Origin: Candidatus Bathyarchaeia archaeon
Lineage (GTDB): Archaea > Thermoproteota > Bathyarchaeia > Bathyarchaeales > Bathycorpusculaceae
Reading direction: 5' to 3'
Assembly (NCBI GenBank): GCA_049512075.1
Contig: JBEKXL010000004.1
Span: 32,001-96,000, forward strand
Length of the DNA: 64,000 nucleotides
In this document: in pieces, positions 9,904-46,022 of the stretch
Layout: each line of letters opens with the position of its first letter
How positions within the stretch are numbered: the stretch's first letter is position 1
Position numbers and translations under genes: made by a program
The notes under the pieces: generated by a model
The model's input: the letters and a program-made list of their open reading frames with translations, nothing else
What the model was told of the DNA's origin: nothing
Databases searched by the model: none

Positions 9904-9964
9904 ATCAATCCCGCATATAGCATGGGGCTAACCGCTTTTAGCATTTACGTATATCGGTGTTTTT

Positions 9965-13524: not shown

Positions 13525-13880
13525 CCCTACTATTCCTTGCTATAACTAGTATTTATAATAAGCAGGGACAATGCGCGCGCGTCTGGTGACACTCTATGCA
13601 CATAACATCTAGCGTGCGCTCTTTCTTTTGCTGTTCGCGGAAATAAGATCGCATGTCTCCAGATGACGACTTAAGCCGCTTAAACGCGTAAACCGATACC
13701 CGTATAAGGGTGTATGCACATTATATCATATAAGGATAAGCTAAAAGGATGGATGTACAATGATAACCGAAACAAGAGCAATACTTTGGCATATGGCAAT
13801 TTGCTTATTGGAAGAACCTCTGACACGTGCGAATCGTGACTAACAAATTGAAGCAATACAAAAACAGGTTGGTAATTGAA

Positions 13881-14024
13881 ATGGGGCGAATTTGCGTGGA
13901 GCTCCCAGATGAACTGGAGAAGAAGCTCAGGTTCAAAGCAATCGAGAGATTTGGCGGCAAGAAAGGCGACCTATCTAAGGCTGTCGAAGAATCTGTAAGA
14001 ACATGGGTTGCCCAAGACAAATAG
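13881..14024 (+). CDS. RHH (CopG-like) protein
   Basis: MGRICVELPDELEKKLRFKAIERFGGKKGDLSKAVEESVRTWV; ATG at 13881. Confidence 0.75.
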   Translation: MGRICVELPDELEKKLRFKAIERFGGKKGDLSKAVEESVRTWVAQDK

Positions 14025-14249
14025 ACGCACGAACAAGCCATGCATTATGATTGGCCTTTCAACAAAAGCTCCACGGTTCGAGTTTGTCTTCACCCCCACC
14101 ACCCAGCAATTTTCTTGGGAGAAAGGGCTGTTCCGGCTCGGCGAAAGACTCTTTTTCGGCTTTCTTTCGCTTCAAGCACAGTTATATGCTGCTCTTTATT
14201 CCACTACTCGCGCGTTTTGGGTTTTGGGCAAAACTTTAGCCGCACACAC

Positions 14250-18712: not shown

Positions 18713-20307
18713 TCTTGATTCTCCAAAGTCTTTGACATATAAACTCCATCGCGCTCGTAACCAAGCCGCTTGTAGTACTGTTTTGTGCCGAGCGCACTTA
18801 TAACTAAAATCTTTCTTAAACCATAATCCTCTCTCGTTATTCTTTCCGCCGTGGCCAGCAGGATTTTGCCGAAACCCTTGTGCTGCCACGCTTGGTCAAA
18901 ATGTTTGCCGACAGGAACTAGGGATCCGTACACGTGGAGTTCCCGGACTATGGAACACGGCTTCGCTTTTACCTCCTTTCTGTGGGCCTTTTCCGAAGGG
19001 ATCCTCAGCCTCAGATAGCCTATCAAAACGTCATTCTTCGAGTCCTCTGCTGAGATGAAGATTTCCTCGCCTTCAGAAGCGTTATATTCTGCAGTCAGGA
19101 TGTCGACTTCCTTTGGCTCGGGCCTCACGCCCCCTTCTGTTCGGTGCCCTACTTCCCTGCAACGTACGCATTTGCACTTCTTGCCTTTCTCAGCCATTTT
19201 CTGTTGTACCAGTTGTCGCAGATTGCTTCTGTTCACGCCCGCAACGATTAGTGGGGCAGGGATGTCGCGTTGGACGCGCATAATACGCATCCATCTTGGA
19301 ACGTTCTCTTTGATTTCTGCGATAAGATCAGCTGCCTCCTCGTTCGTATACGGTCTGAATTCCTTTTCCATATACCATTTGTGGGCTCTTGTGTTCTTCA
19401 AGACCAAGCACGGATAGATCTTCATCATGTCGGGCCTGAAACGGCGGTCTGCGAATATCTTCTTGAATGCCTGCAAGTCTTTTTTTCTGTTCGAGCCGGG
19501 AAGCCCAGGCATCATGTGGTAGACTATCTTCAGTCCTGCATCTTTCATTATTCGTGTAGATTCAACAACGTCTCGAACCGTGTGTGTTCTGCCGACCAAG
19601 CGGTAGATCTTGTCGCTTGGGTTTTGGACGCCCATTTCCACGCGGGTTACGCCCATGTTCAACATATGGTCTACGTGGGTCTCCTTGGCCCAGTCTGGCC
19701 GTGTTTCCACCGTTATGCCGACGTTGCGGATCCTGCTCTCTTCCGCGTTCTCTTCGGCCTCTTCAAGACTGCCTGATTCTTTTCCCGTTATTGCGTCGAG
19801 GCAACGTTGTACAAACCAGGTTTGATAATCCGGGGGCGTGGCGGGGAAAGTTCCGCCCATTATTATGAGTTCTATCTTGTCAACGTTGTGTCCTATGGCT
19901 TGCAATTGTTCGATGCGGGATTTGACTTGTAGGAATGGGTTGAATTCGTTCTGCAGTCCGCGCATGGCCGCAGGTTCGAAACCAGTATAGCTTTGTGGGA
20001 CACCCATAGCAGGTCCTCCGGGACAGTACGCGCAGGGTTCGGCTTGTGGACAAGGATACGGCTTCGTCATTGCAGCTACCACTGTGACCCCGGAGATTGT
20101 ACGTGTGGGCTTCCTTCTCAAGAGCGGCAATAGTCTGCGTTTCTCTTCGGCCTTAAGCAAGCGTATTATCTCGGAATTTGAGGGCACTTTCTGCAGGTGA
20201 TGTTTGAGGGCAGCCTGTTTTTTTAGATAGCCCAAATCGTGATGGCTAGGAGAGGGGCTACCCATCAGAATTTCAATGATTTCTCTCAGGGGCTTATCTG
20301 AATTCAC
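18709..20307 (-). CDS. elp3: Elp3 tRNA uridine(34) acetyltransferase (radical SAM + KAT)
   Basis: RTISGVTVVA, CAYCPGG, ETRPDW, RVQRDIP, RELHVYG, WQHKGFG. Confidence 0.95.
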   Translation of the reverse strand: MNSDKPLREIIEILMGSPSPSHHDLGYLKKQAALKHHLQKVPSNSEIIRLLKAEEKRRLLPLLRRKPTRTISGVTVVAAMTKPYPCPQAEPCAYCPGGPAMGVPQSYTGFEPAAMRGLQNEFNPFLQVKSRIEQLQAIGHNVDKIELIIMGGTFPATPPDYQTWFVQRCLDAITGKESGSLEEAEENAEESRIRNVGITVETRPDWAKETHVDHMLNMGVTRVEMGVQNPSDKIYRLVGRTHTVRDVVESTRIMKDAGLKIVYHMMPGLPGSNRKKDLQAFKKIFADRRFRPDMMKIYPCLVLKNTRAHKWYMEKEFRPYTNEEAADLIAEIKENVPRWMRIMRVQRDIPAPLIVAGVNRSNLRQLVQQKMAEKGKKCKCVRCREVGHRTEGGVRPEPKEVDILTAEYNASEGEEIFISAEDSKNDVLIGYLRLRIPSEKAHRKEVKAKPCSIVRELHVYGSLVPVGKHFDQAWQHKGFGKILLATAERITREDYGLRKILVISALGTKQYYKRLGYERDGVYMSKTLENQE

Positions 20308-31418: not shown

Positions 31419-32114
31419 TTGAGGGAGAGAAGACTGAGAAGGATAAGAATAGCGTCTTTTGATCTGGATGGGACTCTTACGGACATTTCATTCGTGGATT
31501 CCGTGTGGTTAGAGGGAATTCCTCGTTTGTATGCCCTTAAGTACGGTCTTGCGTTTGAAGATGCTAAAAGTTTCGTGACGCGCGAATACGGCAAGGTTGG
31601 CAGGGAGAGGCTTGAGTGGTATGATTTGAGTTATTGGATTGGTAAACTCGGTTTGGATGTTTCTCCTGGAGAGATTTTGAGTTCTTTTCAACATAGAATA
31701 GGGGTTTTCCCTGAAGTGACTGAAGTCTTGGAGGAGTTTAGGAACGTGGGATTAAGGCTGATAATAGTGACGAATGCTCGCAGAGAATTCGCTGATTTGG
31801 AGCTTGAAAAGACAAAGATTGGGCGTTATTTTGAGCGGGTTTTTTCTGCAACCTCCGATTTTGGACTTATCAAGAAAACGCCTAACCTTTACAAAAAAGT
31901 ATGCAGCATCTGCGAGGTTTCCCCCCAAGAAATGATTCATGTGGGCGATGATCAGTGTTTCGATTTTGAGGTCCCAAACAAAATTGGAATAGAGGCCTTC
32001 TACCTCGACAGAACTGGCAAACATTCAGGGCAGTCCGTAATTCACAGTTTAATGGAGCTAGGTCAAAAGCTAACAACTCGGACTGGACAAAACGGGCACA
32101 AGAAGAGTCCATAA
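31419..32114 (+). CDS. HAD-superfamily hydrolase
   Basis: FDLDGTL, VTNA, HVGDD. Confidence 0.9.
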   Translation: MRERRLRRIRIASFDLDGTLTDISFVDSVWLEGIPRLYALKYGLAFEDAKSFVTREYGKVGRERLEWYDLSYWIGKLGLDVSPGEILSSFQHRIGVFPEVTEVLEEFRNVGLRLIIVTNARREFADLELEKTKIGRYFERVFSATSDFGLIKKTPNLYKKVCSICEVSPQEMIHVGDDQCFDFEVPNKIGIEAFYLDRTGKHSGQSVIHSLMELGQKLTTRTGQNGHKKSP

Positions 32115-32149
32115 CACGATAATGCATGCTGGAATCAAAACACAATTAA

Positions 32150-32980
32150 GTGCAATCTCATTTTTCCTCTCTGGACGGTCAATTCACATTGAATACTTGG
32201 CGATTGTTGAGACTCGAAACACACAACGCATTCATGAACATGGCTATCGACGAAGCCATCCTGAATGCCAGAATTGAAGGCCATATCACGGATACCCTGA
32301 GATTCTTCCGTTGGAAACCCTCCGCAGTTTCAATCGGGAAATTTCAAAAGGTCCAAAACGAGGTGCAACTGGAAAACTGCAAGCAACGAGGCATCGACGT
32401 TGTGAGGCGGATCACGGGAGGAGGCACCGTATATCATGACGCCGAGGATGAGATCACCTACAGCGTAGTCGCGAGTAAAGAGAACTTGAAAGCAGACGAC
32501 ATAGCCGACGTCTATGAAAGAATCTACACTGGTCTAACCGAAGCGCTGGGTATCTTGGGCGTGACTGCAGACTTCAATGAAGGCAGTGCGAAGGCATGTC
32601 CAAACCTGACGGTCAAAGGCAGAAAAATCTCTGGAAGCGCTCAGTGTCACAAGCGCGGAGTCGTCTTGCAGCATGGAACAATCCTTGCCAACGTCAACCT
32701 GGAAAAAATGTTCACATACCTGCGTGTTCCCTGGGCCGAAAGCCGCATGCAGGTTGTAAGCGTCGCAAGACGCAAACATACCTCGCTGTACGACGAACTT
32801 GGAAAAAATGTTTCACCGGCGGAATTGATTCATGCCCTAAGAGAAGGCTTTGAGCAAGCCTTGGACATAAGAATCGTTAGCGGTGAACTGACACCTCGTG
32901 AACGTGAGCTTGCAGAAAGACTTTGCGAACAAAAATACGCTACCGCAGATTGGAATCTCCACTGTGGAAGCAGCAACTGA
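32150..32980 (+). CDS. Lipoate/octanoate-protein ligase (LplA/LipM family)
   Basis: NMAIDEA, RRITGGGTVYHD, KISGSAQ, LQHGT. Confidence 0.9.
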   Translation: MQSHFSSLDGQFTLNTWRLLRLETHNAFMNMAIDEAILNARIEGHITDTLRFFRWKPSAVSIGKFQKVQNEVQLENCKQRGIDVVRRITGGGTVYHDAEDEITYSVVASKENLKADDIADVYERIYTGLTEALGILGVTADFNEGSAKACPNLTVKGRKISGSAQCHKRGVVLQHGTILANVNLEKMFTYLRVPWAESRMQVVSVARRKHTSLYDELGKNVSPAELIHALREGFEQALDIRIVSGELTPRERELAERLCEQKYATADWNLHCGSSN

Positions 32981-33061
32981 CGGCCAACATTCACAACGTC
33001 TTCTCAACGAATCAGCCTTCTAGATAGAAGAAACCAAGGAAAATACAGTTGTCTGTGAGGC

Positions 33062-33613
33062 TCAGTTTCCGCATCTGACACCTAGAGTCTTTGCCAACCG
33101 CTTGAAGGCAGCGTCGCTCATCCACTCAGTTTTGAGGTACTGGCAAATCCTCTCGTCCTTCAATCCCAGTTTTCTTGCTTCTTCAACCGCATAATTGTAA
33201 GCTTCAACTTCAGTGGGTCTTTCCGTGTAACCGTAGTGGCTGTCAAACAGCTCTTTTCCTTCCATCAACTGCTTCACATGAACAAGCTCATGAACCACAT
33301 CGAGGTAAACGTCTATCCTGTCACCCTTGTTTAGGTACTTGGAGTTAACCATGAGATGCCCGTTTGAGGCATTCACCCCCATGTAGCCTCCTGCCCACAT
33401 GAACTGAACCTCAAGATTTCGAAGCACTTCCTCGGTTCTTTCGCCGAAGAGCCTTCTCACAGTCTCGACCTTCTCGAAGCCTTTGAAGTAATCCGGAAAT
33501 GGGTGCGCCGATCCTCTAAAGAGTAAGATCCTGTCAATGCGCACTGCTCGAGCCAGACGCAGCATTCTAAACATCAGGCGCTCACGCCAATCCATGTTTG
33601 CCATGCTCCTCAC
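33062..33613 (-). CDS. Hypothetical protein with HExxH zincin-like motif
   Basis: VVHELVHVKQ...PTEVEAY. Confidence 0.65.
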   Translation of the reverse strand: MRSMANMDWRERLMFRMLRLARAVRIDRILLFRGSAHPFPDYFKGFEKVETVRRLFGERTEEVLRNLEVQFMWAGGYMGVNASNGHLMVNSKYLNKGDRIDVYLDVVHELVHVKQLMEGKELFDSHYGYTERPTEVEAYNYAVEEARKLGLKDERICQYLKTEWMSDAAFKRLAKTLGVRCGN

Positions 33614-33656
33614 GTTCCCTCAGCAGCCATGCTTCTTTGTTCATGGATGAATCGAT

Positions 33657-33680
33657 TTAGTGTTTCTCAATTCTCCATTT
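33657..33680 (-). other. att site with displaced original cysS 3' end (core TCTCCATTT at 33672-33680)
   Basis: Minus strand reads AAA TGG AGA ATT GAG AAA CAC TAA = KWRIEKH*, continuing cysS ...QGVKWR; 9-bp core identical to 44613-44621. Confidence 0.8.
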
Positions 33681-33799
33681 ACTAGGCTTGTAAGCCACGT
33701 TTGAATGTTGGAAAGTGTATGAGAATAACGGTGTTTCATGCACAACCCTTTCAAAATTCCTTTAGTTGTTGTTGTTTGAGGTAAATAATAATATAAACC

Positions 33800-34927
33800 C
33801 TATCCTCTCGTTTCCTGATTTGTCACTTGCGGGTCCGTCTTAAGCTCACGGATGCCATGCCCCACAGTGGTTTCAGCATACTTGCCATGTGCCCGTTTGC
33901 ATGGAGCACAGAAGCCGCTCCTCTGAACTGACAGGTTGTGCCTGTCAACATGCAGCAGCGGAGTTCTGCTTGAACGGTGAAACCTGCTTGCAAGTTGCAC
34001 GTAACCCATGCCTTCCTCAACGTACGCTAAAATCATCGAAACATGCTCCGCATCACCGACGGTTTTGAAGCGCCCCCTATCAACGGACTCCGTCAACATT
34101 TCGCTATACTCGATTCGGAAGCCTAAGTTTCGCAGTATGTCCTCATTGGCTGTTTTGTGCCATGGAATCTCCTTAAAGACTCCGTAGCCTATTGCTCCTC
34201 GGCGTGACAGTACAACGAACCTTTGCGGCTGCATGTCTCGCAGCATGTTGGCAGAAACAAACTTGTACATCCACCGCAAATCTTTGCCTAAACCTGGCGC
34301 TCCCTGGGACTTCAAAAACGTGAAGTCCGCAACGGTTCGCACATCAACATCAACGCTTGAGAATCGCAGACTGTCCAAGCCCATCGAAACACCCAAATGA
34401 CGACTCTCGCGAAGCAGATATGCAACTTGACTTTTTGCCTCCAACTGATTTTCGGAGACCCTCAACCTCGAATAGAACAAGTTTGCCGCTTCCCTCGCGA
34501 CACAATAGATCAGTTTTGAATAGTGCAGTCTTCTGTACATAACGTCAAGTGTGTGAGCGCCTGCCGAAAACTCTTGAGCTATGTTCGCGAACATCGGACT
34601 TGCAGAGATAATCATGTTGTACGTGTTAAGATCATGCAATGTCAACGAGTCTGCAACTCGCGTTTCATAGGAACAGCTAACATCCACGTTTTCGCCTTTG
34701 AGCAACAGAATTTTTGCGTCTGTTGCAGCGGGACTTCTCAACCATGCCAAGCCCTCGCCGTCCCTGCTGCCGAAGAGGTCTAGGATGGAGTGGCCGCGTT
34801 CGATGAAGGATTCTCCGATGCTTTCAAGCAAACTGCTTTTTCCAGACCCTCTCGTACCCAACACAAAGAAAACTGACGGTGCATCATAATTAATAACGTC
34901 TTTACCCCTGCACCATCGCACAATCAC
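33800..34927 (-). CDS. P-loop ATPase (FtsK/HerA/packaging-ATPase-like) with C-terminal HTH-like region and CxxC
   Basis: GTRGSGKS, REAANLF Walker B-like, RESRHLG Arg-finger-like, CAPC. Confidence 0.7.
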   Translation of the reverse strand: MIVRWCRGKDVINYDAPSVFFVLGTRGSGKSSLLESIGESFIERGHSILDLFGSRDGEGLAWLRSPAATDAKILLLKGENVDVSCSYETRVADSLTLHDLNTYNMIISASPMFANIAQEFSAGAHTLDVMYRRLHYSKLIYCVAREAANLFYSRLRVSENQLEAKSQVAYLLRESRHLGVSMGLDSLRFSSVDVDVRTVADFTFLKSQGAPGLGKDLRWMYKFVSANMLRDMQPQRFVVLSRRGAIGYGVFKEIPWHKTANEDILRNLGFRIEYSEMLTESVDRGRFKTVGDAEHVSMILAYVEEGMGYVQLASRFHRSSRTPLLHVDRHNLSVQRSGFCAPCKRAHGKYAETTVGHGIRELKTDPQVTNQETRG

Positions 34928-35364
34928 TTTTCAGAACCGCCTTTTTCGTCTTCGTCTTTCTGTTGTTGTTCCAAATCTTTGAAGTTTCCTGCACCAACTG
35001 GCTCCCAGAACCGCTCTAAATATCCATGTGCCCACAAACTATCTTTGTAGAGGCTAAGCAGCCTTCGCGTTTCGCCGTACAGAAATTTTCTGCAGATCGC
35101 GTTAAACTTATCGTTTGAGACGCCTATGCCGTTAATCGGGCTGTAGGTTTGACGCTTGATTCTGACGATGGTTTGCTGTGCTCTGTCAAAGTCTGCTTTA
35201 CATTCGTGCACGACTTCTGGCGGCGCTACACTATTCAAAGTTTTAATGCACTCCCACGCGCCGACGCTGTTTCCATTGTTCATTTGGCTCACGACATCAT
35301 GCAGAGCTGCCACTAACAAGCTTTGATATGGCGGCTGGTAATTTCGCCGCTCAGGTTCACTCAT
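34924..35364 (-). CDS. Hypothetical element protein
   Basis: Overlaps the ATPase start by 4 bp; GAGGTGA upstream. Confidence 0.65.
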   Translation of the reverse strand: MSEPERRNYQPPYQSLLVAALHDVVSQMNNGNSVGAWECIKTLNSVAPPEVVHECKADFDRAQQTIVRIKRQTYSPINGIGVSNDKFNAICRKFLYGETRRLLSLYKDSLWAHGYLERFWEPVGAGNFKDLEQQQKDEDEKGGSEK

Positions 35365-35406
35365 TCTGACGATTCACCTCTTCCTTTTTGTTTTTCAATC
35401 ACACAC

Positions 35407-35592
35407 TCACTTTCTATTTCTTTTTCTCGGCACAGTCGGATTTTGATGGTAAGACTTATGCTCGGTCGCGTTTGCGAGTTCGCGCTCAAAATGCCGTCGG
35501 ATTATTGGATGTGCCTGAACCGTGTCCTGTGCTGCTTTAACTCGTTTCGCTGTGTAGCTTTCGACTGTTTCTTTCCTCACCAAATTTATCAC
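35407..35592 (-). CDS. Small basic hypothetical protein
   Basis: In a tightly packed co-directional gene string. Confidence 0.45.
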   Translation of the reverse strand: MINLVRKETVESYTAKRVKAAQDTVQAHPIIRRHFERELANATEHKSYHQNPTVPRKRNRK

Positions 35593-35598
35593 CCCCCT

Positions 35599-35787
35599 CT
35601 AAATCGTGTAAGCTTTGCTACCGTCACGCTCTCCAAGTTGTTTCTTAATCTGTTCTCGCTGCCTTTCCAGTTCCAAGCGAAGCTTTGTCTCACACAAGTC
35701 AAGCTTCATAGATTCTAAAGCCAAACGGTCAAACCTGTCTGTCATCCTTCTGTTTTTGCGTCTATGTTTCAGCCAAGCATTGAACAT
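35599..35787 (-). CDS. Small coiled-coil hypothetical protein
   Basis: GGAGGA upstream; KLRLELERQREQIKKQL. Confidence 0.55.
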   Translation of the reverse strand: MFNAWLKHRRKNRRMTDRFDRLALESMKLDLCETKLRLELERQREQIKKQLGERDGSKAYTI

Positions 35788-36096
35788 CTATCTCTTCCTC
35801 CGCTTAGAAGCTGGTTTGCCAGCGAACACTGTGCCCAAATTGTCAACTCGGTGGCTGACCTTCTGTGTGCGTTGGGTGAAAGTTGGCCTCGGTTTAGGAC
35901 GCGCTGCACGTGGCAAAGGTGTATGATGGATTGGTTCGCTTGAGGGTGAGTAAACAATGATTTTCTGCCTTGGCAGATAATTGACCCTATGTTGCGGTTG
36001 CTTCGGTTGCTCTTGCGTCGTCTCTTGTGAAGTGTCGCTCTCGGAAGATTTCCAAACCTTGCCATTGCGTTTCTTTCTCCATGCTGAACCCGACAT
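35788..36096 (-). CDS. Small basic hypothetical protein
   Basis: Abuts neighbouring genes; R/K/P-rich. Confidence 0.5.
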   Translation of the reverse strand: MSGSAWRKKRNGKVWKSSESDTSQETTQEQPKQPQHRVNYLPRQKIIVYSPSSEPIHHTPLPRAARPKPRPTFTQRTQKVSHRVDNLGTVFAGKPASKRRKR

Positions 36097-36098
36097 GC

Positions 36099-36245
36099 CT
36101 AATCAACCTCTTCAACGGTCACTTCATAATCTCGCAACTTCGCTTTAGCGTGGATTTCAGCCGCAAGCCTCTGGCACTCCAACAAGACACGCCGTCGCGC
36201 CCTCTCTTCGACGCTGATAGGCTCAACCACATCAGACCCACTCAT
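36099..36245 (-). CDS. 48-aa hypothetical protein
   Basis: MSGSDVVEPISVEERARRRVLLECQRLAAEIHAKAKLRDYEVTVEEVD; ATGA overlap with the upstream gene fills the gap exactly. Confidence 0.5.
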   Translation of the reverse strand: MSGSDVVEPISVEERARRRVLLECQRLAAEIHAKAKLRDYEVTVEEVD

Positions 36246-36604
36246 TCTTCATTTTCCTCTGAATCAGCAGAATCAATGAAGGCAAATTCCTCGAAGCATT
36301 TGGTATGCGCATAGGCTCTCCTCATTCCCCGGACGCGTCCGTGTTGGCGTTTCGATTCTTGATAGGATAAAGGTCGGTATCGATGCCCTTTGTCCTCTGA
36401 AACCCATAACCGTTTCGAAACTTTAGGCTCATTCGGCTGGATAATTCTGTGACAATAGCGGCATACTTTTGGTGGACTTGTGCGTGTGTGCTTTTTGGGT
36501 TTCTCTTTACTACTCGTTACCGTGTTACTGAGTTTACCGAGTTCCTCCAGAGCGCAGGCATCTTTTTGAGTGTTTTCTCCATGCTTTTCTTCCATTGTGT
36601 CCAT
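36242..36604 (-). CDS. Zinc-finger protein (CxxC...HxxC)
   Basis: VCRYCHR...AHTKCF. Confidence 0.6.
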   Translation of the reverse strand: MDTMEEKHGENTQKDACALEELGKLSNTVTSSKEKPKKHTRTSPPKVCRYCHRIIQPNEPKVSKRLWVSEDKGHRYRPLSYQESKRQHGRVRGMRRAYAHTKCFEEFAFIDSADSEENEE

Positions 36605-36616
36605 GCTTTTCCCCCC

Positions 36617-38735
36617 CTACGCTCCTTCGGAACTTAGTAAACTTGGTAACTTGGTAACGAGTTCGTAACCGTACTTCTTTGCTACCCGCCGAAGCTTTTC
36701 TAAAGGAAAAAGGTAGCTTTTGGTTGACGCCCAGTGGCCTTCAGAATCCTTTTCTCTTATGACCTTTGTTTCACCGCTAAGTATCTCTCTGAGCCTATAG
36801 CCCACCCTGTTCTTTGTGATTATTCCAAAGTCGCCAGTATCCATCTCGTTGGGTTTGTTCTCGTTCACTCGACCATTCAACTCGTAACCTAGCTCCTGCC
36901 ATATAGTTCTGAAGGGCAAAGACTCGATGACAAACTTAGCTTCATTGTGGAGGTCTACGACGACCTTAACGATTTTTCCCTCTAACGTGTCCTGCCTGCC
37001 GCTCAACCTAGCTTTGCTCTGCTCATCCACAAACTTGAACAGGTTATCATAGAATGGCAGGCCAACTGTAATTTGTAGAAGAGGCTTCCAGAGTTCCTTG
37101 AGCCTCCCTTTTACGGCAAGTTCAACAGCAGGCAGCTCTAAGCCTCGGGTTTCCATCCGCCATTTCAGAAGCATGTTTCTAAGGGTCTGCATCCGCGCTT
37201 TGTCTTCCTTCGTTAAATCAGCCCATTCTTTTCGCGGGGACCCTTCAACCATTGCGATGAAGAGGAATCTCTCGTTAAATCCCTTCACTTGGGGTATCTG
37301 CTCGCTGGCGCATGATTTGAAACAGAAGGTTCGATAATACTTGATTATCCTGTCGAAACTTGTTATCAGGGTTCTAGGAACCACTGCTCCCGCCTTGTAT
37401 CCGGCTTTGTAAATCTTGATTTTGTCCGTGTCTTTGTGGATGCCTTGCACTTCGTCTTCAAGTATGCAGCCCTGCCCATCAGAATCTTCTAGGTATCCGT
37501 AGAGGTCAGCGGAGGGGATTGTCACGCCGTACATTGGGCGGTAGGACAGGTTCTTTAAGACGTTGAGGACGGTGGATTTTCCGCTTTCATTGTCACCGTA
37601 CAAGAAGAGATAGGGGACTGTAGTAAGCTTCTCTTGTTGATAGGTCAACATGACACATGCGGTTAGAACGTCCTTCCAAATTGGCTCTACATCAACCCAG
37701 GTTTCAAACTCGTCGCGGATCTGTGCGGCTAATTCTTTTTGGCTGGGTGTCTGTCCGATGATGTATCCGTAAGGCTCGTATGGGACATTCTGCATTTCCT
37801 TTGGAGCAAAGGTTTCCTCGCATATGTCTACAGTTTCGATTAGACTGAAGTCTCCGCCATTCAACTTTAGAAAGAAGGGTCTTCCATCATTGTAGACAGC
37901 TTCGAAGCACCCTTCTGCTAGTATGCCCGAGTCCTTCAGTTTCCGCCGTGTTTTCTTCTCGACTGGCTCGGCTATGTTGTCAGTCTTGCTTTTTCTTGCG
38001 AGAGCGTTTTCTACCATGCGTTTTAAGTCGGCCTCATTCATGGGAGGATCGTTTAGTTTGTTCCATTCTTGCATGGCATGAAAGGCTGTTGCCGCATCGA
38101 ATGTTTGAACTCCAACTAGATAGTTAGCGAATTTTATGCCTTGCGCGTGTCTTGTGCCCTGCGGAACTCCTTTTCGCATTTGCTCAAAAGTAATGGGCTG
38201 TTTAGGATCACTGCCTAAGTAGGGTTCAAAAAGCTTCATAAAATCGTCATACCGCATTTTTGCGAAGGGACGGTCTTGGGTGATCGTGTAAGTTCCTATT
38301 TTAGGCTCACTGGTCCTCAAGTCTCTGTAGTGAATTTCTGTTCCTGGAGCTACCAAGTAATAGTTTTGCGCTCGAATTTCTCCGCACCCTTCATCTTCGC
38401 CCTTCAAGTGCAAAGTTTTGTTTTGAACCTGTCCGCCTTCGACAACAACATAGAAATGAGTTAGTCCGCGGCGGGGGCTGCGAACCTCAAACGTGGGGGG
38501 GGAGAATCTGTCTTAGTATTGTGTCCATGCTCACTTTATCCGCGTCAACGAGAACTAACCCGTCTCTGCCGCATATTCCCCAGCAAGGCCAACCCTTCAT
38601 TTCTTGCGGCGTGTACAGTCTGTTTTGCCATTCAGATTCAAACGCTGCTTTTTCATCATTAAGTTTCAAGAATCTTCGTGTGTCGAATCCGGCTTCTTGG
38701 AGTCGTTGGATTAATGTCTGTTGCTCAGCATTCAA
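36617..38735 (-). CDS. Prim-Pol primase/polymerase-PriCT-helicase replication protein, split by +1 in a C8 tract
   Basis: 38487-38735 has WGICG..LVLVDAD; with C7 it continues LPPTFEVRSPRRGLTHFY...GEIRAQNYYLVAPG (AEP motifs), PriCT-like GTRH..WNKLNDPPM, Walker A GDNESGKS, ILEDE. Confidence 0.8.
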
Positions 38736-38753
38736 AAGGAAGAAGCCCCCAGG

Positions 38754-39056
38754 CTACTTTGGGATTGTAAAGTGTGACGCTCGACCTGCGCTCACGTAAC
38801 TCCCGTTGTATTCACGGACAATCTTAGAGAGTTCTGCAAATGTTGACGGTTGTAAGAAAGCGCGGGGGCGAATTTCCCAGTTGGTTATCATGTCGGAAAC
38901 CGTAACAAGCTCAGACAGGTTTTCAGGGAAAACAGGAGGTTTGATGTTGCTTGGAATCTTTGCCGGTTCACCGACTTTTTGAACATGTAATTTTCCCTCA
39001 TAGAACTTTTGTCCAATCTTCACAAGTATCTCGATTTCTTGAGCCTGTTCGCTCAT
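38754..39056 (-). CDS. Hypothetical element protein
   Basis: Clean ORF with GGTGA upstream, in the replication operon. Confidence 0.6.
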   Translation of the reverse strand: MSEQAQEIEILVKIGQKFYEGKLHVQKVGEPAKIPSNIKPPVFPENLSELVTVSDMITNWEIRPRAFLQPSTFAELSKIVREYNGSYVSAGRASHFTIPK

Positions 39057-39157
39057 GCTAATTCACCACGAAGGACTTTTCGGGCCTCTGAAAGTTGTTC
39101 CTGCAAACTCGCAAGCAACTCTCTGACCTTGGCAAGCTTTTCCGCGTCGCTAGACAT

Positions 39158-39343
39158 TTACGTTATCACCTTGACGCCTAATGCTTTCTTGTCGTCAGCC
39201 GACAGGTATGATAGGCTGGCAAGCTCTTTTCGGACGGCCCGTCTGACAAAATCGCTTAGATCTTCGCCTCTGGACTTTGAAACTTTTTTTAGTAAGTCCT
39301 TGTCTTCTACGCTGATTCGTACACCAATTATGCAGTTGCTCAT
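39158..39343 (-). CDS. RHH/CopG regulator
   Basis: IGVRISVEDKDLLKKVSKSRGEDLSDFVRRAVRKEL. Confidence 0.8.
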   Translation of the reverse strand: MSNCIIGVRISVEDKDLLKKVSKSRGEDLSDFVRRAVRKELASLSYLSADDKKALGVKVIT

Positions 39344-39404
39344 AGTTTGACACTGTCAAACTTTAAATAGATAAGTCTAGTAGCTTACTAAGTAAGGTGA
39401 AAAA

Positions 39405-40202
39405 GTGAAACCCGGCGAATACAAAATCGTAGCACACCTAATGAATGAATATCCAAAAGGCTTAACATTCACAGAACTGAAGGAGAAAACAGGCCTTTCA
39501 GCTCCATCACTCAACGAGTACCGGGTGAGCCTACTCAAAGACGGAATGATTCTGTACAATCCAGCAACGAGACAGTATTCAGTCGCAGCTGCGTATCATC
39601 CAACAGAAAAAGTGTCCACTCACCTAAAACGCAACTTGTCCTATTTGCTCAGTGACATGCCATTTGAAGGCAGTAGAATCGCAATGGTTAAGGATGTTGA
39701 ACTGCGAAAGAGGATCTTCATTAGTTTCCTGTCTTACCATTTGAGCAATGTTTCTGTGTTGGTTCTCGCTGCTATAAGTGATGCGTTGGATCAAACGCTT
39801 GGGCAAAACAAGAAGGCAAAGTATGTAGTTGAAGAAAAGCTTGAATCAGGAAAAAAGGACAAAACGAAGGAGGTGAAAGCATTCTTCAACTATTGGGAAG
39901 GCGAATTAAGTCAGTTCCATTCTGTAATGAATGATAGGATGCAAAACTGGATAATTCCATATATTCAAATGATGGCGTTAGCCGATTTTGGCAATGCAGA
40001 CTTGGGTATGAAACGGATAATTGAGGAATTGACGAAGCGGTTCAGTCCTGAAGCAGAAGAAACCACTCTTTGGTTCCGCGAACTCGAGGCACTGGACCAT
40101 GAGTTCGCAAGTAAGAATCCTGAATTTGCGGAGTTAAAAAGGCAGGCAGATGACCTTAGGAGAGAACGAGCATACGCGCATGAAAATGAAAAGAAGGAAT
40201 AG
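39405..40202 (+). CDS. N-terminal wHTH regulator, divergent from the RHH gene
   Basis: GLTFTELKEKTGLSAPSLNEYRVSLLKDGMI. Confidence 0.75.
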   Translation: MKPGEYKIVAHLMNEYPKGLTFTELKEKTGLSAPSLNEYRVSLLKDGMILYNPATRQYSVAAAYHPTEKVSTHLKRNLSYLLSDMPFEGSRIAMVKDVELRKRIFISFLSYHLSNVSVLVLAAISDALDQTLGQNKKAKYVVEEKLESGKKDKTKEVKAFFNYWEGELSQFHSVMNDRMQNWIIPYIQMMALADFGNADLGMKRIIEELTKRFSPEAEETTLWFRELEALDHEFASKNPEFAELKRQADDLRRERAYAHENEKKE

Positions 40203-40204
40203 GC

Positions 40205-40720
40205 ATGGTGTCCAAAGACGCAACGTATCGTAAGCTCTACGCCACGTGGATCAAAAAGTGGACGATGGAGTGTGCTGTGAAAGGCCTCTCAAAATCAAAG
40301 GCGAAAGAAGAGATAGACTTTCAGCTATCAAAAGAGACTCTGCGACTTGGCGCTAGTGCGCGCGCTAAATATACGATAAAGGAGACTCTGCGACTTCAAG
40401 GAGTTACAATTTACGGTTTAGAGGAAACTTACTATTGTGAGCGTTTTTTGTGCCATGAAAGGACAAACATTATGGCCTGCATGGACCGAGAACCACCTAA
40501 TGTTGGACGTATGGTTTGTCCTAAGCATTTGGAAGAGCTGAAAAGAGAGTACGTTGCCCAGAATAAACCAACGTTAGAGGAACGTGAGAATTTGCAGTCA
40601 ATGAAGAAATTAGAAGAGTCCGAAGCCAGATGGTGGTTTGAAGAAGAGGTCACTAAGAAGCTCTCATCGAAGCCTACTAATCACGGAAAGGGGCGGCGGA
40701 AAACACGCAGAAATTCCTAA
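40205..40720 (+). CDS. Hypothetical Cys/His-containing protein with internal duplication
   Basis: CERFLC...CPKH; KETLRL occurs twice, 16 aa apart. Confidence 0.55.
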   Translation: MVSKDATYRKLYATWIKKWTMECAVKGLSKSKAKEEIDFQLSKETLRLGASARAKYTIKETLRLQGVTIYGLEETYYCERFLCHERTNIMACMDREPPNVGRMVCPKHLEELKREYVAQNKPTLEERENLQSMKKLEESEARWWFEEEVTKKLSSKPTNHGKGRRKTRRNS

Positions 40721-40854
40721 GAGTGCCCTTGAGCCACGCGCTCACCCTGTTCGGACTGCGAACAAATTAAAATCGTTTACTAACCAATTATTAACCCCAC
40801 AGTTAAATTTATAAGCTCACAACACACAATAAGCTAACAAGGAGAAAAGAGAAA

Positions 40855-41133
40855 ATGAATTTGTACCTAACACTAGACGAAGAAGGAACAAAGCGCTTCC
40901 AAGCGGTCAAGAAACACACTGGCATGAAGGCCAACAAGAATGTTATGGCTTACTTAATCTACAAGGAATACAGGAGAACACAAACTGGTCACAGGTTGTT
41001 TTTGGGAAGCGAAAGCTACGCTATGGTGGAGAAGGCTGCTGAGGCTAAGGGTGAAAGCATCGAGGAGTTTGTTGAAAACCTTATCGAAAGTGAGATCAAG
41101 AAGGCTGAGGAAGGCGAGAAGCATGAAAACTGA
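40855..41133 (+). CDS. Tandem RHH-like protein
   Basis: NLYLTLDEEGTKRF...; RLFLGSESYAMVEKAAEAKGESIEEFVENLI; TTTATAA promoter-like at ~40808. Confidence 0.65.
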   Translation: MNLYLTLDEEGTKRFQAVKKHTGMKANKNVMAYLIYKEYRRTQTGHRLFLGSESYAMVEKAAEAKGESIEEFVENLIESEIKKAEEGEKHEN

Positions 41134-41410
41134 AAAGATAGAAACTGTTGACAGAACCATAACCGTCAAGTTGCCCAGGAGATTAGATGAGTACCTTCAA
41201 GGCTTGGCTAGGGCGCTTAACCGAACTGTCGAAAATATGCTCTTGGAAGATCTCTATGCCAAGCTGGAGTGTTTTTTCCAAGGTGGTTTCGCTGAGGACT
41301 GGACACTGGAGATATTAGACGGAAGTGAAGGGAAGAATCTGGAACAAGAAGTCACGGAAGTCGCAAACGTTGTATTGAATCAATCGGTTGAGAGGACCGC
41401 AATCCTCTAA
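41123..41410 (+). CDS. RHH-like protein
   Basis: ITVKLPRRLDEYLQGLARALNRTVENML; ATG 41123 overlaps the upstream gene. Confidence 0.6.
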   Translation: MKTEKIETVDRTITVKLPRRLDEYLQGLARALNRTVENMLLEDLYAKLECFFQGGFAEDWTLEILDGSEGKNLEQEVTEVANVVLNQSVERTAIL

Positions 41411-41424
41411 CTCTCTCTTTTTTT
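41411..41424 (+). terminator. Pyrimidine/oligo-T archaeal terminator
   Basis: CTCTCTCTTTTTTT directly after the stop. Confidence 0.5.
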
Positions 41425-41447
41425 GTGAATTTATGAAGGCTTAGGCC

Positions 41448-41594
41448 ATGACTGAAACAGAACTTAACGCGGATGATCGTGAGCTGGTTCGTCAAGAACT
41501 TTATTGGATAGCCTGTTATCTACGAAAGAACTATCATGCGCTCACACCTTGGATAAGAAAGCAACTGCACGAAATGATTAGCGTTTCGGTCTAG
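41448..41594 (+). CDS. 48-aa hypothetical protein
   Basis: MTETELNADDRELVRQELYWIACYLRKNYHALTPWIRKQLHEMISVSV; stop codon overlaps a GC motif. Confidence 0.4.
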   Translation: MTETELNADDRELVRQELYWIACYLRKNYHALTPWIRKQLHEMISVSV

Positions 41595-41985
41595 TGCGCG
41601 CTCTATCTATCTGTGATGTGACAAAGTTTCAGAGATTCTGCGAAAGCATCCTGACCTAGTAAACCTTGAAGCATATAAGAAAACCATGCATGAAGCGATA
41701 GATGAATTTTAGGAGATAATTGTTATGGTTGAACATAGCGCGCACTCTGTTTATCATCTAGTTAAAAGCCCTGCGAGTCATTTTATATATGGAAAGGATT
41801 AAATATTGTTTCTATATTCACAACTTATTTAAGCCAAATCAGAACAAGCAAAACCAATAACGAGAAAGATGTGCAATTATGCACGTAGTGAATAGAGAAA
41901 ACCTCTATGCATACATAAATAAGGTACTGGACACTCAACATCAATGGTAAGGTTGGGTATTTTGTTTGTTGAAGGGTGATGAAAA

Positions 41986-42231
41986 ATGACTGAATTATTG
42001 TCTCTTAAAGAAGCACCTATAACCTTCAAAATGAAGTTGATTCAAGAGCTAGGATATGAATCCGATGGAACGTATGTTTTGAACAAAGACGGGACAAGAT
42101 GCCTAGATAGATACACGCAAGAACCTATACAACTAGATAACATGGTAATTCTTCCTGGAAGCGCAATAATACTTGATGACAATGAGTTGAGTATCCTCTG
42201 TTATTTAGAGGAATTTGGAGATGTCCTCTAA
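41986..42231 (+). CDS. Hypothetical cargo protein (AT-rich)
   Basis: GGGTGA RBS; acidic 81 aa; overlaps the next gene. Confidence 0.65.
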   Translation: MTELLSLKEAPITFKMKLIQELGYESDGTYVLNKDGTRCLDRYTQEPIQLDNMVILPGSAIILDDNELSILCYLEEFGDVL

Positions 42232-42913
42232 AGACCCTCTAAAGAGTGCTGTTGAGGGCGCGGTCAAAGGTGCTCTTGAATATCTTGATGACAAGATAAC
42301 TGGTTACATTACAAAACTTAGTAATAGAGAACTTGCTTTCATTGGAGAAGCTCAAACAATAAAGACTGCGAAAGACTCGAAAAATGCGTCAGAATACAAG
42401 TTTTTCAAACAATACATTGACAACCCTAATTACCGTGTTCAGTTTCTATTAGGGTTAACATTGAGAAAATTTGAGAAAGATAACAAACGCCTCACCCGTT
42501 TGAGAGACAAAATACTACGCAAATATGGTGAGAAAGGACTCCATGTTGCTCAGTTCGTTCAGAATGGGCTTGTTAACAATTACTTTGGAAATGTCCTTGA
42601 GACTTCGACGATTAACCCGGAAGATTTGACGATTGAAATCGAGAAGTTATTCGATAACATAGAGAACATAGTTAACTACATTGAACAATTTGACAATGTG
42701 GACAAAAAGGTCAAAGAGATAGCGACCAAGATAAACGCTTTCTCGCCAAAAACATACATTATCTGCAGTTCAAAATTTGCGATGGAACAAGGGCAGAAAG
42801 TTCTAAAGGGAGTGCAGAAAGAAATCCAAAACTATGAGGTTGAGCTATACAAGACAGACATTAAAGAAGTTTACTTTTTGAGGAGAACCCCGCCTAAGAC
42901 ATCTAGTCATTAG
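42215..42913 (+). CDS. Hypothetical cargo protein (AT-rich)
   Basis: 232-aa clean ORF with visibly AT-rich codon usage. Confidence 0.7.
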   Translation: MEMSSKDPLKSAVEGAVKGALEYLDDKITGYITKLSNRELAFIGEAQTIKTAKDSKNASEYKFFKQYIDNPNYRVQFLLGLTLRKFEKDNKRLTRLRDKILRKYGEKGLHVAQFVQNGLVNNYFGNVLETSTINPEDLTIEIEKLFDNIENIVNYIEQFDNVDKKVKEIATKINAFSPKTYIICSSKFAMEQGQKVLKGVQKEIQNYEVELYKTDIKEVYFLRRTPPKTSSH

Positions 42914-43046
42914 AAAACGAGGAAGTTAGCGCGAGTTAGTGCAAGAGCCATGGATGTGAGGCACTGCTTCTTAGCAGAAAAGCCTAGCCTAAACCACTCA
43001 AACTATGCCACTCGTGCTGGTGGTCGGTGTGATCTACACACTGGCT

Positions 43047-43319
43047 CTATCCAACCCACTCGCGTTTTCCAGCTTGGTTGAGTCTAGTATAGGTTTTAGG
43101 TGTCTGGTCTAGCATCTTTGAAATGGTGTTTGCGGTTCTCAGCATACGCCGACTTGCCCTATCTAAGAACCTGCTTGATCCAGGCAGTCGAACACAGTCA
43201 ATCATTCCACTGGCCTGTTCAAACAAGACGCGGTAAGCGTTCAAGACTGCACGTTCAAAAACCCTTTCAAACTTGGGCTTTTTTCTGCTTCTCATTCTGT
43301 TCACCACTTTCCTGTTCAA
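43047..43319 (-). CDS. Small basic hypothetical protein downstream of the integrase
   Basis: Overlaps the integrase stop. Confidence 0.45.
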   Translation of the reverse strand: MNRKVVNRMRSRKKPKFERVFERAVLNAYRVLFEQASGMIDCVRLPGSSRFLDRASRRMLRTANTISKMLDQTPKTYTRLNQAGKREWVG

Positions 43320-44533
43320 TCTACCGTCTTCCGTATTTCCTGAACTGTCCTTTCAATGTCTCCGAGTTTCCTTTCAACCGCCTGCATCCTACCCTTTAGG
43401 TCCATGTTCTCAGTCACAAGCGAGTTAACCAAAACCTGAAGCTGCTTGTTCTGCTGTTCCATTTCGCCTTTGAGCTTCTCTCTGAGTTCTTCAACGTCAA
43501 CCTTGGGCGTACTAATCGAAACAAGCTTCTCTCTGGCTAGATACATCTGTTTCAAAGATTCGAATTGCACGGACTTGTAGGCTTCGTTTAAGGCTCCTAC
43601 TTCATGGCCTAGCCAGAAGTCAACCACGCTGTCCGGAACGCCTGAGTTAGCCATTATTGAACCGAAGGATTCACGCAGAGCATGTGGTCCCAATGGGTTG
43701 TGGCTGTTTCCGTTGTTCGTTTTGTCTATGAATCCGCTTTTCAAAGTCACTTCCCTGAGCATGTCCTGCACGTTGGCGGTTCTAATGCCTTCTCTTCCTC
43801 GGTCTTGAAGGAACAATGGGTCGTTAGGCGTGAGCTGTATGTCTCTTGATTTCAAGTCCGCCAAGTAAGCTCGCAATGCTTCTGTTGCGTCTTTGCCTAT
43901 GAATGTGTAGAATGGAACGCCTGTCTTAGGCCTCTGAAGGTCAAGCTTCAATGGGTGTTCATTCTTTGCTAATCCTTGAGCCACGTCTTTGTATCTCAGA
44001 CTGCACAAGGTCGAAACGTCTAATCCACCTTGGAAGTGTACGAGAATGATGGCTCTGTCTCTTGGTGTTCTAGCATGGTCAACCAAAACTTTGACTTGCT
44101 CCGCCCCAACAATCATCCGCTTGTTTTCTGTTCTTGGCCTTGGAAGTCTCTGTCTTCCCCTCATGTTGACTGTTAACTCATAGGTCTGATAGAAACTTCG
44201 TATAGCTGAAACGAACAGGTGAGCTAGGTTATCTGATAATCCTTTGCCAACAATCCGATGTTCGCCTTGGCCTCTCGACTTCTTTTCATAATCCTTCTTG
44301 AGCCATCCGTAGAAGCCTAGTATCCTAGTCAAGAGAACGTCCTGCTTCTGTCTAGGGTCGTGCTTTGAATCTTCTATGGCTTCGTCAATAAGCTGCGAAG
44401 GCGTTAGGCCAGTGTATAAGGTGTAGGCTCTGAATGCTGTCTTGTAGTTGGCCTTTGTTCCCGGCTTACTTATCGTTCCCAGCCAACGTTTCAAAACTGG
44501 GTCTTCCCAACTGACTGTATCCGCTTTCACCAT
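43316..44533 (-). CDS. int: Tyrosine recombinase/integrase with C-terminal coiled coil
   Basis: SAM-like N-domain, RDRAII, RPKT, HALR, LGH, EAY. The first catalytic Arg position reads GGLDVS rather than GxR, as in a group of archaeal integrases. Confidence 0.88.
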   Translation of the reverse strand: MVKADTVSWEDPVLKRWLGTISKPGTKANYKTAFRAYTLYTGLTPSQLIDEAIEDSKHDPRQKQDVLLTRILGFYGWLKKDYEKKSRGQGEHRIVGKGLSDNLAHLFVSAIRSFYQTYELTVNMRGRQRLPRPRTENKRMIVGAEQVKVLVDHARTPRDRAIILVHFQGGLDVSTLCSLRYKDVAQGLAKNEHPLKLDLQRPKTGVPFYTFIGKDATEALRAYLADLKSRDIQLTPNDPLFLQDRGREGIRTANVQDMLREVTLKSGFIDKTNNGNSHNPLGPHALRESFGSIMANSGVPDSVVDFWLGHEVGALNEAYKSVQFESLKQMYLAREKLVSISTPKVDVEELREKLKGEMEQQNKQLQVLVNSLVTENMDLKGRMQAVERKLGDIERTVQEIRKTVD

Positions 44534-44591
44534 ACATCACATCCGCCTTTCGTATGTGTAAATAACTAAAGGCAGAAGTCATATATAAAAC

Positions 44592-46022
44592 TTAGCTTGT
44601 AGGCTTACTAAATCTCCATTTGACGCCTTGAGAAGTGTCCTCAATCAATATGCCCATGGCCTTGAGCCGTTGCCTAATCTCATCAGCCGTCTTCCAATCT
44701 TTCGCCCTTCTTGCTTCTTCCCTTTTCAGAATAAGCTCCTCAGCCTCTCTTGGCAACTTTTCTTCCTTTTTGATTTCACCTATGACGCCCAAAACCTTGT
44801 CAAACTCGAGCATTGTGTCGTAAACTTCCTTTGCTTCCTCTCTGCTCAGCATGTTTCCATCAATAAGATTGTTGACGTCTCTGATGAAATCAAAGAGTGC
44901 AGCCAAGGCCACGCTTATGTTTAAGTCATCGTCCATGGCTTCCTCAAAACCATTTTGCACCCGGACAGTCAGCTGTTTGAGCTGGTCCCCGCTGCCCTTG
45001 CCGTCAGCGTCCAGCAGGCGGTGTACGAAGTTTGTCAGTCGGTCTAGAGTGTTCCTTGCAGCTTCCAGACCTTCGAAGGTGAAGTTGACCTGCTGCCTGT
45101 AATGCGTTGCGAGGAGGAGATATCGTATGGCCTTCGGGTCATAACCCTTGGCTGTTAAATCCCGTACAGTATAGTAGTTGCCCAGGCTCTTCGCCATTCT
45201 TCTGCCTTCTATGAGCAAGTGCTCGTTGTGAAGCCAGTAGTTTACGAATTTCTTGCCTGTGGCAGCTTCGCTTTGGGCAATCTCGTTTTCGTGATGTGGG
45301 AAGAGGTTGTCCGCACCGCCGCAGTGAATATCCAGTGTTTCACCGAGGTATTTCATTGACATGGCTGAGCATTCAATGTGCCATCCGGGTCTTCCCTTTC
45401 CAAACGGCGTCTCCCAGAAGACATCTCCATCCTCTTCGCTCCACGCCTTCCATAAGGCGAAATCTTGCGCCTGCTCCTTGGCGTACTCGTCAACCTTCAC
45501 TCTTGCGCCGAGCTTTAGGTTTTCGACCTTGATGTTTGCAAGCTTCCCATAGTCCTTGAACTTTGAAATGTCATAGTATATCGAACCGTCTTCACCCTTG
45601 TACGCGTAGCCTTTCTCCATCAACTTCGTGATCAGAGCCACCATCTCTGGCACATGCTCGGTCGCCTTCGGATAAAACTCTGCCTTTTCAATGTTCAACG
45701 TCGCAACATCCTCAAAGAAAGCCCTCGTGTAACGTTCTGTGTATTCCTTGAGCGGCACTCCATTCTTCCTGGAAGCCTTAATCGCCTTGTCATCGACATC
45801 CGTCAGGTTCATGACCTGAGTGACCTTGAAACCGCGATACTCAAGCCACCTCCTCAGCAGATCTTCGAAAATGAACGCTCGATAGTTCCCTATGTGTCCA
45901 TAATCGTAAACAGTAAGCCCACACGTGTACATCTTGACCTTTCCTTTTTCGAGGGGAATGAACTTTCCCTTCTCACGTGCCAGACTATTGAAAAACCGAA
46001 TATTGCCGGGTCGAGATTCCAT
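44592..46022 (-). CDS. cysS: Cysteine--tRNA ligase (C-terminus FSKPTS supplied by the element)
   Basis: CGLTVYD..HIGN, DFALWK, GRPGWHIECS, FPHHENE, MAKSLGN. Confidence 0.97.
   Translation of the reverse strand: MESRPGNIRFFNSLAREKGKFIPLEKGKVKMYTCGLTVYDYGHIGNYRAFIFEDLLRRWLEYRGFKVTQVMNLTDVDDKAIKASRKNGVPLKEYTERYTRAFFEDVATLNIEKAEFYPKATEHVPEMVALITKLMEKGYAYKGEDGSIYYDISKFKDYGKLANIKVENLKLGARVKVDEYAKEQAQDFALWKAWSEEDGDVFWETPFGKGRPGWHIECSAMSMKYLGETLDIHCGGADNLFPHHENEIAQSEAATGKKFVNYWLHNEHLLIEGRRMAKSLGNYYTVRDLTAKGYDPKAIRYLLLATHYRQQVNFTFEGLEAARNTLDRLTNFVHRLLDADGKGSGDQLKQLTVRVQNGFEEAMDDDLNISVALAALFDFIRDVNNLIDGNMLSREEAKEVYDTMLEFDKVLGVIGEIKKEEKLPREAEELILKREEARRAKDWKTADEIRQRLKAMGILIEDTSQGVKWRFSKPTS
44613..44621. 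other. att core inside cysS (TCTCCATTT)
   Basis: Identical to 33672-33680; encodes KWR of cysS. Confidence 0.8.

Follow-up and report, generated by a model that had tools for sequence, protein, structure and literature searches.

The question raised by this locus is how cysS, the gene for cysteinyl-tRNA synthetase (CysRS), came to stand 10.9 kb away from its own last codons while still encoding a complete protein. The gene lies in a stretch of 64,000 nt, referred to here as the window (G000:C4:32001-96000), from a metagenome-assembled genome of 86 contigs and 2.7 Mb whose host is probably a peat Bathyarchaeia lineage. On the minus strand, positions 44592-44640 read ...QGVKWRFSKPTS followed by a stop codon, and cysS ends in KWR-FSKPTS, while positions 33657-33680, also on the minus strand, hold KWRIEKH and a stop, the native end of the gene. 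The sequence TCTCCATTT is found on the plus strand at both places (33672-33680 and 44613-44621), as described in the original prediction, in which a tyrosine recombinase was taken to have placed a mobile element in the 3' end of cysS and thereby exchanged the tail. That reading is borne out by breakpoints in three relatives (L002-L004) and by a PF00589 integrase whose gene begins ~80 bp inside the cysS-side junction. Very probably, a circular element of ~10.9 kb was inserted in cysS at its 3' end by conservative site-specific recombination via its own tyrosine integrase.

The 9-mer repeat was rejected as stand-alone evidence. Between the 167 nt upstream of the integrase and a 15-kb stretch of the window there are 10 exact repeats of 9-11 nt, all as long as the 9-mer or longer, which is therefore no better than chance taken alone, and the claim rests on comparison with relatives. 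The CysRS gene was found in 28 of the 31 genomes searched. In all four other genomes of the same genus (L002-L005), cysS is followed directly by a homologue of the HExxH-motif gene that stands beyond the far junction in the window, and the synthetase ends in KWR plus IEKH, IEKR, DEKHQTGSRQIGKA and IEKR. In nucleotide alignments (blastn), L003 and L004 match the window from 44613 upward and from 33680 downward, with the two segments overlapping in the relative by exactly 9 bases; in L002 (93% nucleotide identity) the matches stop at 44610 and 33680 and share 12 bases, and its empty-site end is the same as the displaced cysS end, stop codon excepted. Read against these empty sites, 10,941 bp have been inserted into the ancestral arrangement in the window, and the crossover maps within AAATGGAGA, the K-W-R codons. 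The relatives agree with the original prediction on both points that it raised about them: the neighbouring gene adjoins cysS in every same-genus genome compared, and none of the 18 relatives' CysRS ends compared is FSKPTS-like. The tail beyond KWR or KWK varies in length and sequence among relatives (for example KKK, IERKTS, LENKA, IRHLQKHRT and RIKK).

The junctions were checked with Logan contigs of four sequencing runs (X1, X5, X6 and X7). A single contig of X1, possibly the source run, covers 32001-45452 at a depth of 87 and crosses both junctions; record 18 of X6 covers 33548-34649 and bridges attR, and record 30 of X7 covers 44537-44752 and bridges attL, all with zero differences from the window. 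Parts of the element are present in contigs of 9 sequencing runs, all of them peat or wetland metagenomes. The element has a copy number of 1 in its own genome, and as a whole it was not found in the four other genomes of the genus, where parts of its replicase and low-GC cargo stand at other loci. A separate observation concerns L030 (G026:C9), where positions 1560-1690 hold a degenerate copy of the last ~65 cysS codons that ends in KWRIKKR and a stop and contains two in-frame stops. It lies between thiolase-like and acyl-CoA dehydrogenase genes, shares 70% identity with the cysS end of the same genome and has no integrase closer than 1.5 kb; an old event at cysS may have left it as a scar.

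The integrated synthetase gene encodes a protein with complete domains, as tRNA-synt_1e is matched over positions 3-300 of 301 and DALR_2 and CysS_C are both present (Pfam). Residues 422-470 correspond to positions 3-51 of the 51 in CysS_C, and since this profile ends exactly at the R of KWR, the exchange removes only the unconserved CysRS tail. In the proposed mechanism, attP would lie between the ATPase gene's end and the promoter of the integrase gene, and attB would be the 9-bp AAATGGAGA, the K-W-R codons that close the last conserved CysRS domain. Strand exchange within the shared 9 bp would leave each junction with a single copy of the core. At the cysS junction, six new codons and a TAA stop come from the attP arm, by which a full-length CysRS would still be made and the essential gene kept whole, and the native four codons and stop are left stranded beside the former downstream gene. 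The swap of tails is probably neutral, because the tail past KWR is poorly conserved among relatives; such neutrality would in turn make an essential, stable gene usable as a landing site.

The integrase gene is intact. Its product matches PF00589 with 53.9 bits (cutoff 27.1; E 2.5e-14) and the phrog_1 integrase of PHROGs (E 1.8e-15), and scores 81.3 bits against archaeal XerA (NF040815), for which the curated equivalog cutoff is 220; judged by these scores, the protein is related to XerA and is not XerA itself. In an alignment of five relatives of the integrase, R158, K203, H284, R287, H310 and Y319 are invariant, and by their motif position we take them to be the catalytic residues R...K...HxxR...H/W...Y. 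The open reading frame (ORF) is uninterrupted over 405 aa with the core ~80 bp upstream of its start codon; the gene was not split on integration, and the enzyme is therefore not an SSV-type 'suicidal' integrase. The TATA-box-like sequence TTTTATATA, together with a conserved leader, is found in the same place upstream of the integrase gene in most relatives and is a putative promoter of this gene.

The attP site was rebuilt by a script that joined the inner arms by coordinates, and the random control consisted of joins of window sequence put through the same search. The rebuilt site contains a 19-nt dyad with complementarity at 14 of 19 positions around a 4-nt spacer, a score reached by 17 of 20,000 random joins. 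The imperfect palindrome first proposed for attP thus stands, but the spacer has a smaller part than was given to it: attP and attB share the 9-bp core, and the 4 nt mark only the centre of the attP dyad. A palindrome had been claimed for attB as well; at 10 of 19 positions it equals the random median and was rejected as being at chance level, with attB, attL and attR all scoring 9-10. The centre of the attP dyad falls within the core in an offset position, and the inverted arms start asymmetrically relative to the ends of the element. The integrase probably recognises the dyad-symmetric arms, and the core would only have to match the target. The features of the locus are collected in Table 1.

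Table 1. Coordinates of the integrated element, its borders and the adjoining host genes (positions within the window).
Feature	Position	Strand	Remarks
Host HExxH-motif gene	33062..33613	-	Original downstream neighbour of cysS; adjoins cysS in L002-L005
Displaced native cysS 3' end	33657..33680	-	KWRIEKH and stop; now 10.9 kb away from the gene
attR core copy, 9 bp	33672..33680	.	Placed by the relatives' breakpoints
Element body	33681..44612	.	10,941 bp with one core copy counted; breakpoints from three empty-site relatives
ATPase-side attP arm	33681..33717	.	Near-identical in a related element as far as the core, where identity stops
FtsK/HerA-superfamily P-loop ATPase, 375 aa	33800..34927	-	C-terminal helical (helix-turn-helix-like) part; last gene before attR
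146-aa ORF, helical	34924..35364	-	Overlaps the ATPase start by 4 nt; no family assigned; atlas model has weak helical-bundle neighbours only, no jelly roll
Short basic and zinc-ribbon ORFs	between the replicase and the 146-aa ORF		
Replicase in two frames	36617..38735	-	82-aa ORF (38487-38735) and 598-aa ORF (36617-38413); Prim-Pol (AEP), weak PriCT-1, P-loop (GDNESGKST)
C8 homopolymer	38495..38502	-	Replicase frame shifts by one base
Opposite-strand small-ORF block	39405..42913	+	265, 171, 92, 119, 81 and 232 aa; includes a low-GC stretch
Tyrosine integrase, 405 aa	43316..44533	-	Intact; C-terminal coiled-coil-like extension; PF00589, phrog_1
TATA-box-like TTTTATATA	44582..44590	-	48 nt upstream of the integrase ATG; putative promoter
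cysS, 476 aa, complete	44592..46022	-	Last 6 codons and stop (44592-44612, FSKPTS and stop) element-derived
Integrase-side attP arm	44595..44612	.	Between the core and the integrase promoter; from the dyad analysis; positional equivalent in L123
attL core copy, 9 bp	44613..44621	.	TCTCCATTT on the plus strand, AAATGGAGA in cysS sense; codes for K-W-R of CysRS

The principle at work is not new, as Thaumarchaeota and bacteria already offer documented cases in which an element enters the expendable final codons of an essential gene and replaces its tail, and the view in the original prediction that a synthetase target with C-terminal replacement is unusual was overstated. In the parts of Krupovic et al. 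2019 (PMC6563490) drawn on here, Thaumarchaeota elements are inserted into the 3' ends of protein genes with the stop codon replaced; att (attachment) sites are as short as 8 bp, and in the worked example, NitEve-E2 (13 bp), the replacement of the stop codon by element sequence was checked against the empty site in a sister species. The present element shares with these a tyrosine integrase, a related archaeal lineage as host, a very short att site and the last codons of a protein gene as target, and differs in its host class and in that cysS is not among the 14 targets listed there. Its core of 9 bp compares with the 29-69 bp given in the same source as typical of crenarchaeal att sites. Most of the Thaumarchaeota elements of this kind are called 'cryptic integrated elements' in those parts of the paper, and some carry primpol-helicase replicases. 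The element in the window is likewise an integrase-bearing multigene island with defined att sites and with no viral, conjugative or casposon hallmark set, and having an integrase, a prim-pol replicase and an FtsK/HerA ATPase with no recognisable capsid or conjugation set, it is best classed as a cryptic integrated element; the FtsK/HerA ATPase with its helix-turn-helix (HTH) part, its hallmark, is not described for cryptic elements in the portions of PMC6563490 used.

Among bacteria, streptococcal integrative and conjugative elements enter lysS within its final 13-17 bp (Ambroset et al. 2016, PMC4701971, in the portion concerned with this target). They resemble the present case in that a tyrosine integrase acts at the 3' end of an aminoacyl-tRNA synthetase gene that stays functional, whereas according to that portion they are bacterial, large and conjugative, carry type IV secretion modules and use a different synthetase. 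Further protein-gene targets of archaeal tyrosine recombinases appear in the review of Badel et al. 2021 (PMC8371274), whose sections on the classical tRNA-gene-targeting integrases of the SSV, pTN3 and pT26-2 types also describe conservative recombination, regeneration of the target gene from the element and switching of targets between closely related integrases. Unlike in those types, the target here is a protein gene, the 64-kb window holds no tRNA gene and the integrase gene is unsplit. No report of cysS as an attachment site was found in the literature searched, whose supplementary tables may list more targets, and for integration at tRNA synthetase genes in general it contained nothing that bears on archaea. 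With attL, attR and attB exactly placed from relatives and attP reconstructable, the locus provides a cleanly delimited integrative element in Bathyarchaeia, a class with no cultured genetics and few described mobile elements. With its 9-bp core, defined arms and intact integrase, it is a candidate for a compact system of integration in a class of archaea that is uncultured.

The most interesting by-product of the comparison is the outline of a family of Bathyarchaeia elements that is widespread and apparently undescribed, and in which one attP arm is conserved and the cores vary. Six related loci have in common only the ATPase, the integrase and, weakly, the replicase, and the ATPase is the hallmark gene of the family. 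It has 615 homologues at E ≤ 0.001, mostly ~50% identical and with the few named ones from Bathyarchaeia, and was found in 12 of the 401 genomes sampled from the class. An H..H..C..C motif is conserved, with H330, C340 and C343 invariant, and the C-terminal 80 residues form helices in the AlphaFold model. In one locus, L090 (G066:C26), an ORF at 11133-14162 in the ATPase orientation contains the family ATPase fused in an open frame of 1009 aa.

Wherever both genes are present, the integrase stands at one end of the element and the ATPase at the other (as in L085, L086, L123 and L125). The metagenomic L123, with an integrase 76% and an ATPase 52% identical, shows two copies of a 10-nt direct repeat, 9914-9923 and 19158-19167, in places equivalent to those of the cores in the window. 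Its ATPase-side arm is near-identical to that of the window over ~33 nt up to the core, where the similarity ends; its core and host flanks differ, and it is intergenic, between a 228-aa gene and a thiolase-like gene. The family appears to move to new targets through a change of its overlap core, with at least one arm kept, and the pair of sister elements, with the same arm, another core and another target, is a natural experiment on the retargeting of tyrosine integrases. L128, a metagenomic contig of 1.9 kb, holds on one strand the 3' end of the ATPase gene, 277 nt and the integrase gene, an arrangement as would be expected of a circular or tandem form. The best dyad in this contig (14/19, centre of 4 nt) stands directly upstream of the TATA-like box of the integrase, which is the predicted place. 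L125, a metagenomic contig of 9.4 kb, carries a whole related element that begins and ends with the integrase and the ATPase, respectively, or the reverse, and has on either side the 9-nt repeat CATAGTTTT (119-127 and 9277-9285), the integrase-side copy of which lies ~25 nt past the stop codon of a host gene.

A survey of related integrases for cysS targeting, as suggested in the original prediction, gave no further case. None of the 31 loci (L036-L066) had a CysRS match in flanks of ±1.5 kb (more for two loci, less at contig ends), and cysS targeting is therefore not a clade-wide property. The integrase relatives examined occupy differing loci, and no tRNA genes were found in the 15 related loci scanned. 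For L067, L068 and L069, with integrases 52-62% identical, the exact-repeat search for att sites was uninformative and no shared upstream arm was visible by eye. A DHHA1 gene adjoins the integrase of L069; its homologues are only 54-64% identical, and definition of the att site through them was abandoned as the ends were too divergent. In G284, synteny with two same-genus genomes breaks at least 84 nt past the stop of an Hdr-like gene, ~1.25 kb from the integrase, and the other border was not found within 17 kb. In the same genome, two ~75-nt stretches of L067 (G284:C1; 16045-16125 and 17101-17178), one at the 3' end of a NosD-like secreted-protein gene and one just upstream of it, are found again at dozens of sites in every one of the 25 genomes of the genus; a small repeat element or shared signal or sorting-sequence modules may account for them.

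Counted from the cysS side, the genes of the element are the integrase, the small ORFs, the replicase, the short basic and zinc-ribbon ORFs, the 146-aa protein and the ATPase. Neither of the two replicase ORFs alone matches any family in the library scan. Read through the C8 run, the replicase matches Prim-Pol (PF09250) at E 2.3e-6 and 28.6 bits (cutoff 22.8), with the break falling inside the matched residues 42-132, and is in this respect like the pRN1 ORF904 replicases with their N-terminal AEP/Prim-Pol domain. Where those replicases have a C-terminal superfamily 3 helicase domain, the present protein has a Walker A motif and only weak AAA matches (E 0.03-0.17). A PDB sequence search returned no solved relative of the replicase and no match for the ATPase. 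The break at C8 could be a slippery site, a mutation due to decay, or an error of sequencing or assembly. Among the ORFs of the element, none was recognised as a capsid, terminase, conjugation-pilus or transposase gene (Pfam, PHROGs and NCBIfam), and the element's DNA had no match in the plasmid collection.

As a tentative and broader reading, the element may be the first delimited member of a widespread, undescribed Bathyarchaeia family that is defined by a terminal FtsK/HerA-HTH-zinc ATPase and by an attP between the ATPase gene and the tyrosine integrase. Such a family would swap only the 9-10-bp core, keep its integrase-binding arms and land in the ends of essential genes such as cysS, and the ATPase could serve a group of viruses with an unrecognised capsid as packaging motor, or else transfer DNA as a one-protein system like actinomycete TraB; taken as a whole, this is possible rather than likely. 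Actinomycete integrative conjugative elements such as pSAM2 are ~10 kb long and have an integrase, a replicase and a single FtsK-like translocase with a DNA-recognition domain, although they are bacterial and target tRNA genes. The likeness of the present element to this type is an analogy only.

An alternative account takes the element to be a provirus whose B204-like ATPase packages the genome, with the capsid either among the unassigned ORFs or supplied by a helper virus, as for a satellite. The structure model of the ATPase (AF2, pLDDT 82) has as its best Foldseek match the B204 packaging NTPase of STIV/STIV2 (E 1.2e-9, TMt 0.65), with which it shares the ATPase core fold of these A32-like enzymes as far as the predicted model goes; there is also a weak PHROG terminase match (E 0.004), the atlas neighbour clusters carry mostly viral labels, and size and layout are like those of small archaeal proviruses. 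Against this, TMq to B204 is only 0.38 and the next matches, close behind, are TcpA (a conjugation coupling protein), HerA, EccC and VirB4, with scores of conjugation or HerA ATPases nearly as high. The structure-atlas neighbours are DUF87/HerA-like, and a weak PADLOC mad8 match covers the P-loop. At 375 aa with an extra C-terminal HTH/zinc part, the protein is also longer than B204 (~200 aa). In archaeal proviruses with double-jelly-roll capsids, integrase and ATPase do occur together (PMC6563490, in the parts used here), but no double-jelly-roll capsid gene is detected in this element. The ORF coupled to the ATPase is helical, and no capsid-like protein, nor any candidate for such a capsid near the ATPase, was found with structures predicted for some of the ORFs; the otherwise unassigned ORFs are without matches in Pfam, PHROGs and NCBIfam. 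Across the six related loci no conserved partner gene accompanies the ATPase, and its profile found no relative in the viral contig collection. The Bathyarchaeia viruses described in the sections consulted of PMC10848311 are tailed, filamentous and spindle-shaped, with no element like the present one among them. On this balance a provirus is unlikely.

Concerning integration itself, this element would have passed through a circular intermediate and may still be active; several observations weigh against the account given here. The joint of attP or attB of the element is absent from the contigs of X1, X5, X6 and X7, although contigs cannot reveal rare forms and are silent on excision. The replicase is frameshifted in the assembly, because of which this copy may be in decay and no longer mobile, with integrase, ATPase and the two cores all intact. 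The neutrality of the new CysRS tail is deduced from variability only. In a scan of the whole 280-nt spacer, 17 of 300 shuffles equal the dyad score of L128, and this dyad is therefore weak on its own and supportive only by its position. Finally, a 9-bp direct repeat flanking imperfect inverted termini also fits the anatomy of a transposon, in which case a transposase or casposase would have produced the repeat as a target-site duplication, with terminal inverted repeats for arms. This seems very improbable, as neither a DDE or other transposase nor Cas1 was found in the ORFs searched (Pfam, PHROGs and NCBIfam), an intact tyrosine integrase stands at the junction, and the offset of the dyad centre inside the core means that the inverted arms are not symmetric at the ends of the element. 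L128, moreover, joins the ATPase end and the integrase in one native sequence, as is expected for a circle. An assembly chimera of a free plasmid and the chromosome, conceivable for a metagenome-assembled genome in 86 contigs, has almost no probability left, given the single X1 contig across both junctions, the identical contigs of two other runs and studies that bridge one junction each, and a displaced KWRIEKH remnant and 9-nt overlap that fit recombination and not misjoining.

The small ORFs of the opposite-strand block have no usable family in Pfam, PHROGs, NCBIfam or PADLOC, with a borderline Homeodomain match in the 171-aa ORF. The stretch 41500-43000, which holds the 81-aa and 232-aa ORFs, has the lowest GC content of the element (37-39% vs 47-49% around it). 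DNA like it (66-70% identity) occurs at other loci in G001 and G002, and because of this it looks like exchangeable cargo. Four more distant tyrosine recombinase genes (23-37% identity) are present in the element's own genome, on contigs C11, C9, C10 and C24 (L032-L035). Outside the window on the same contig, G000:C4:110773-112226 (L102 and L103) contains two stretches of 47-82 nt that are 74-83% identical to ORF regions of the element, and may point to a second, unrelated mobile element.

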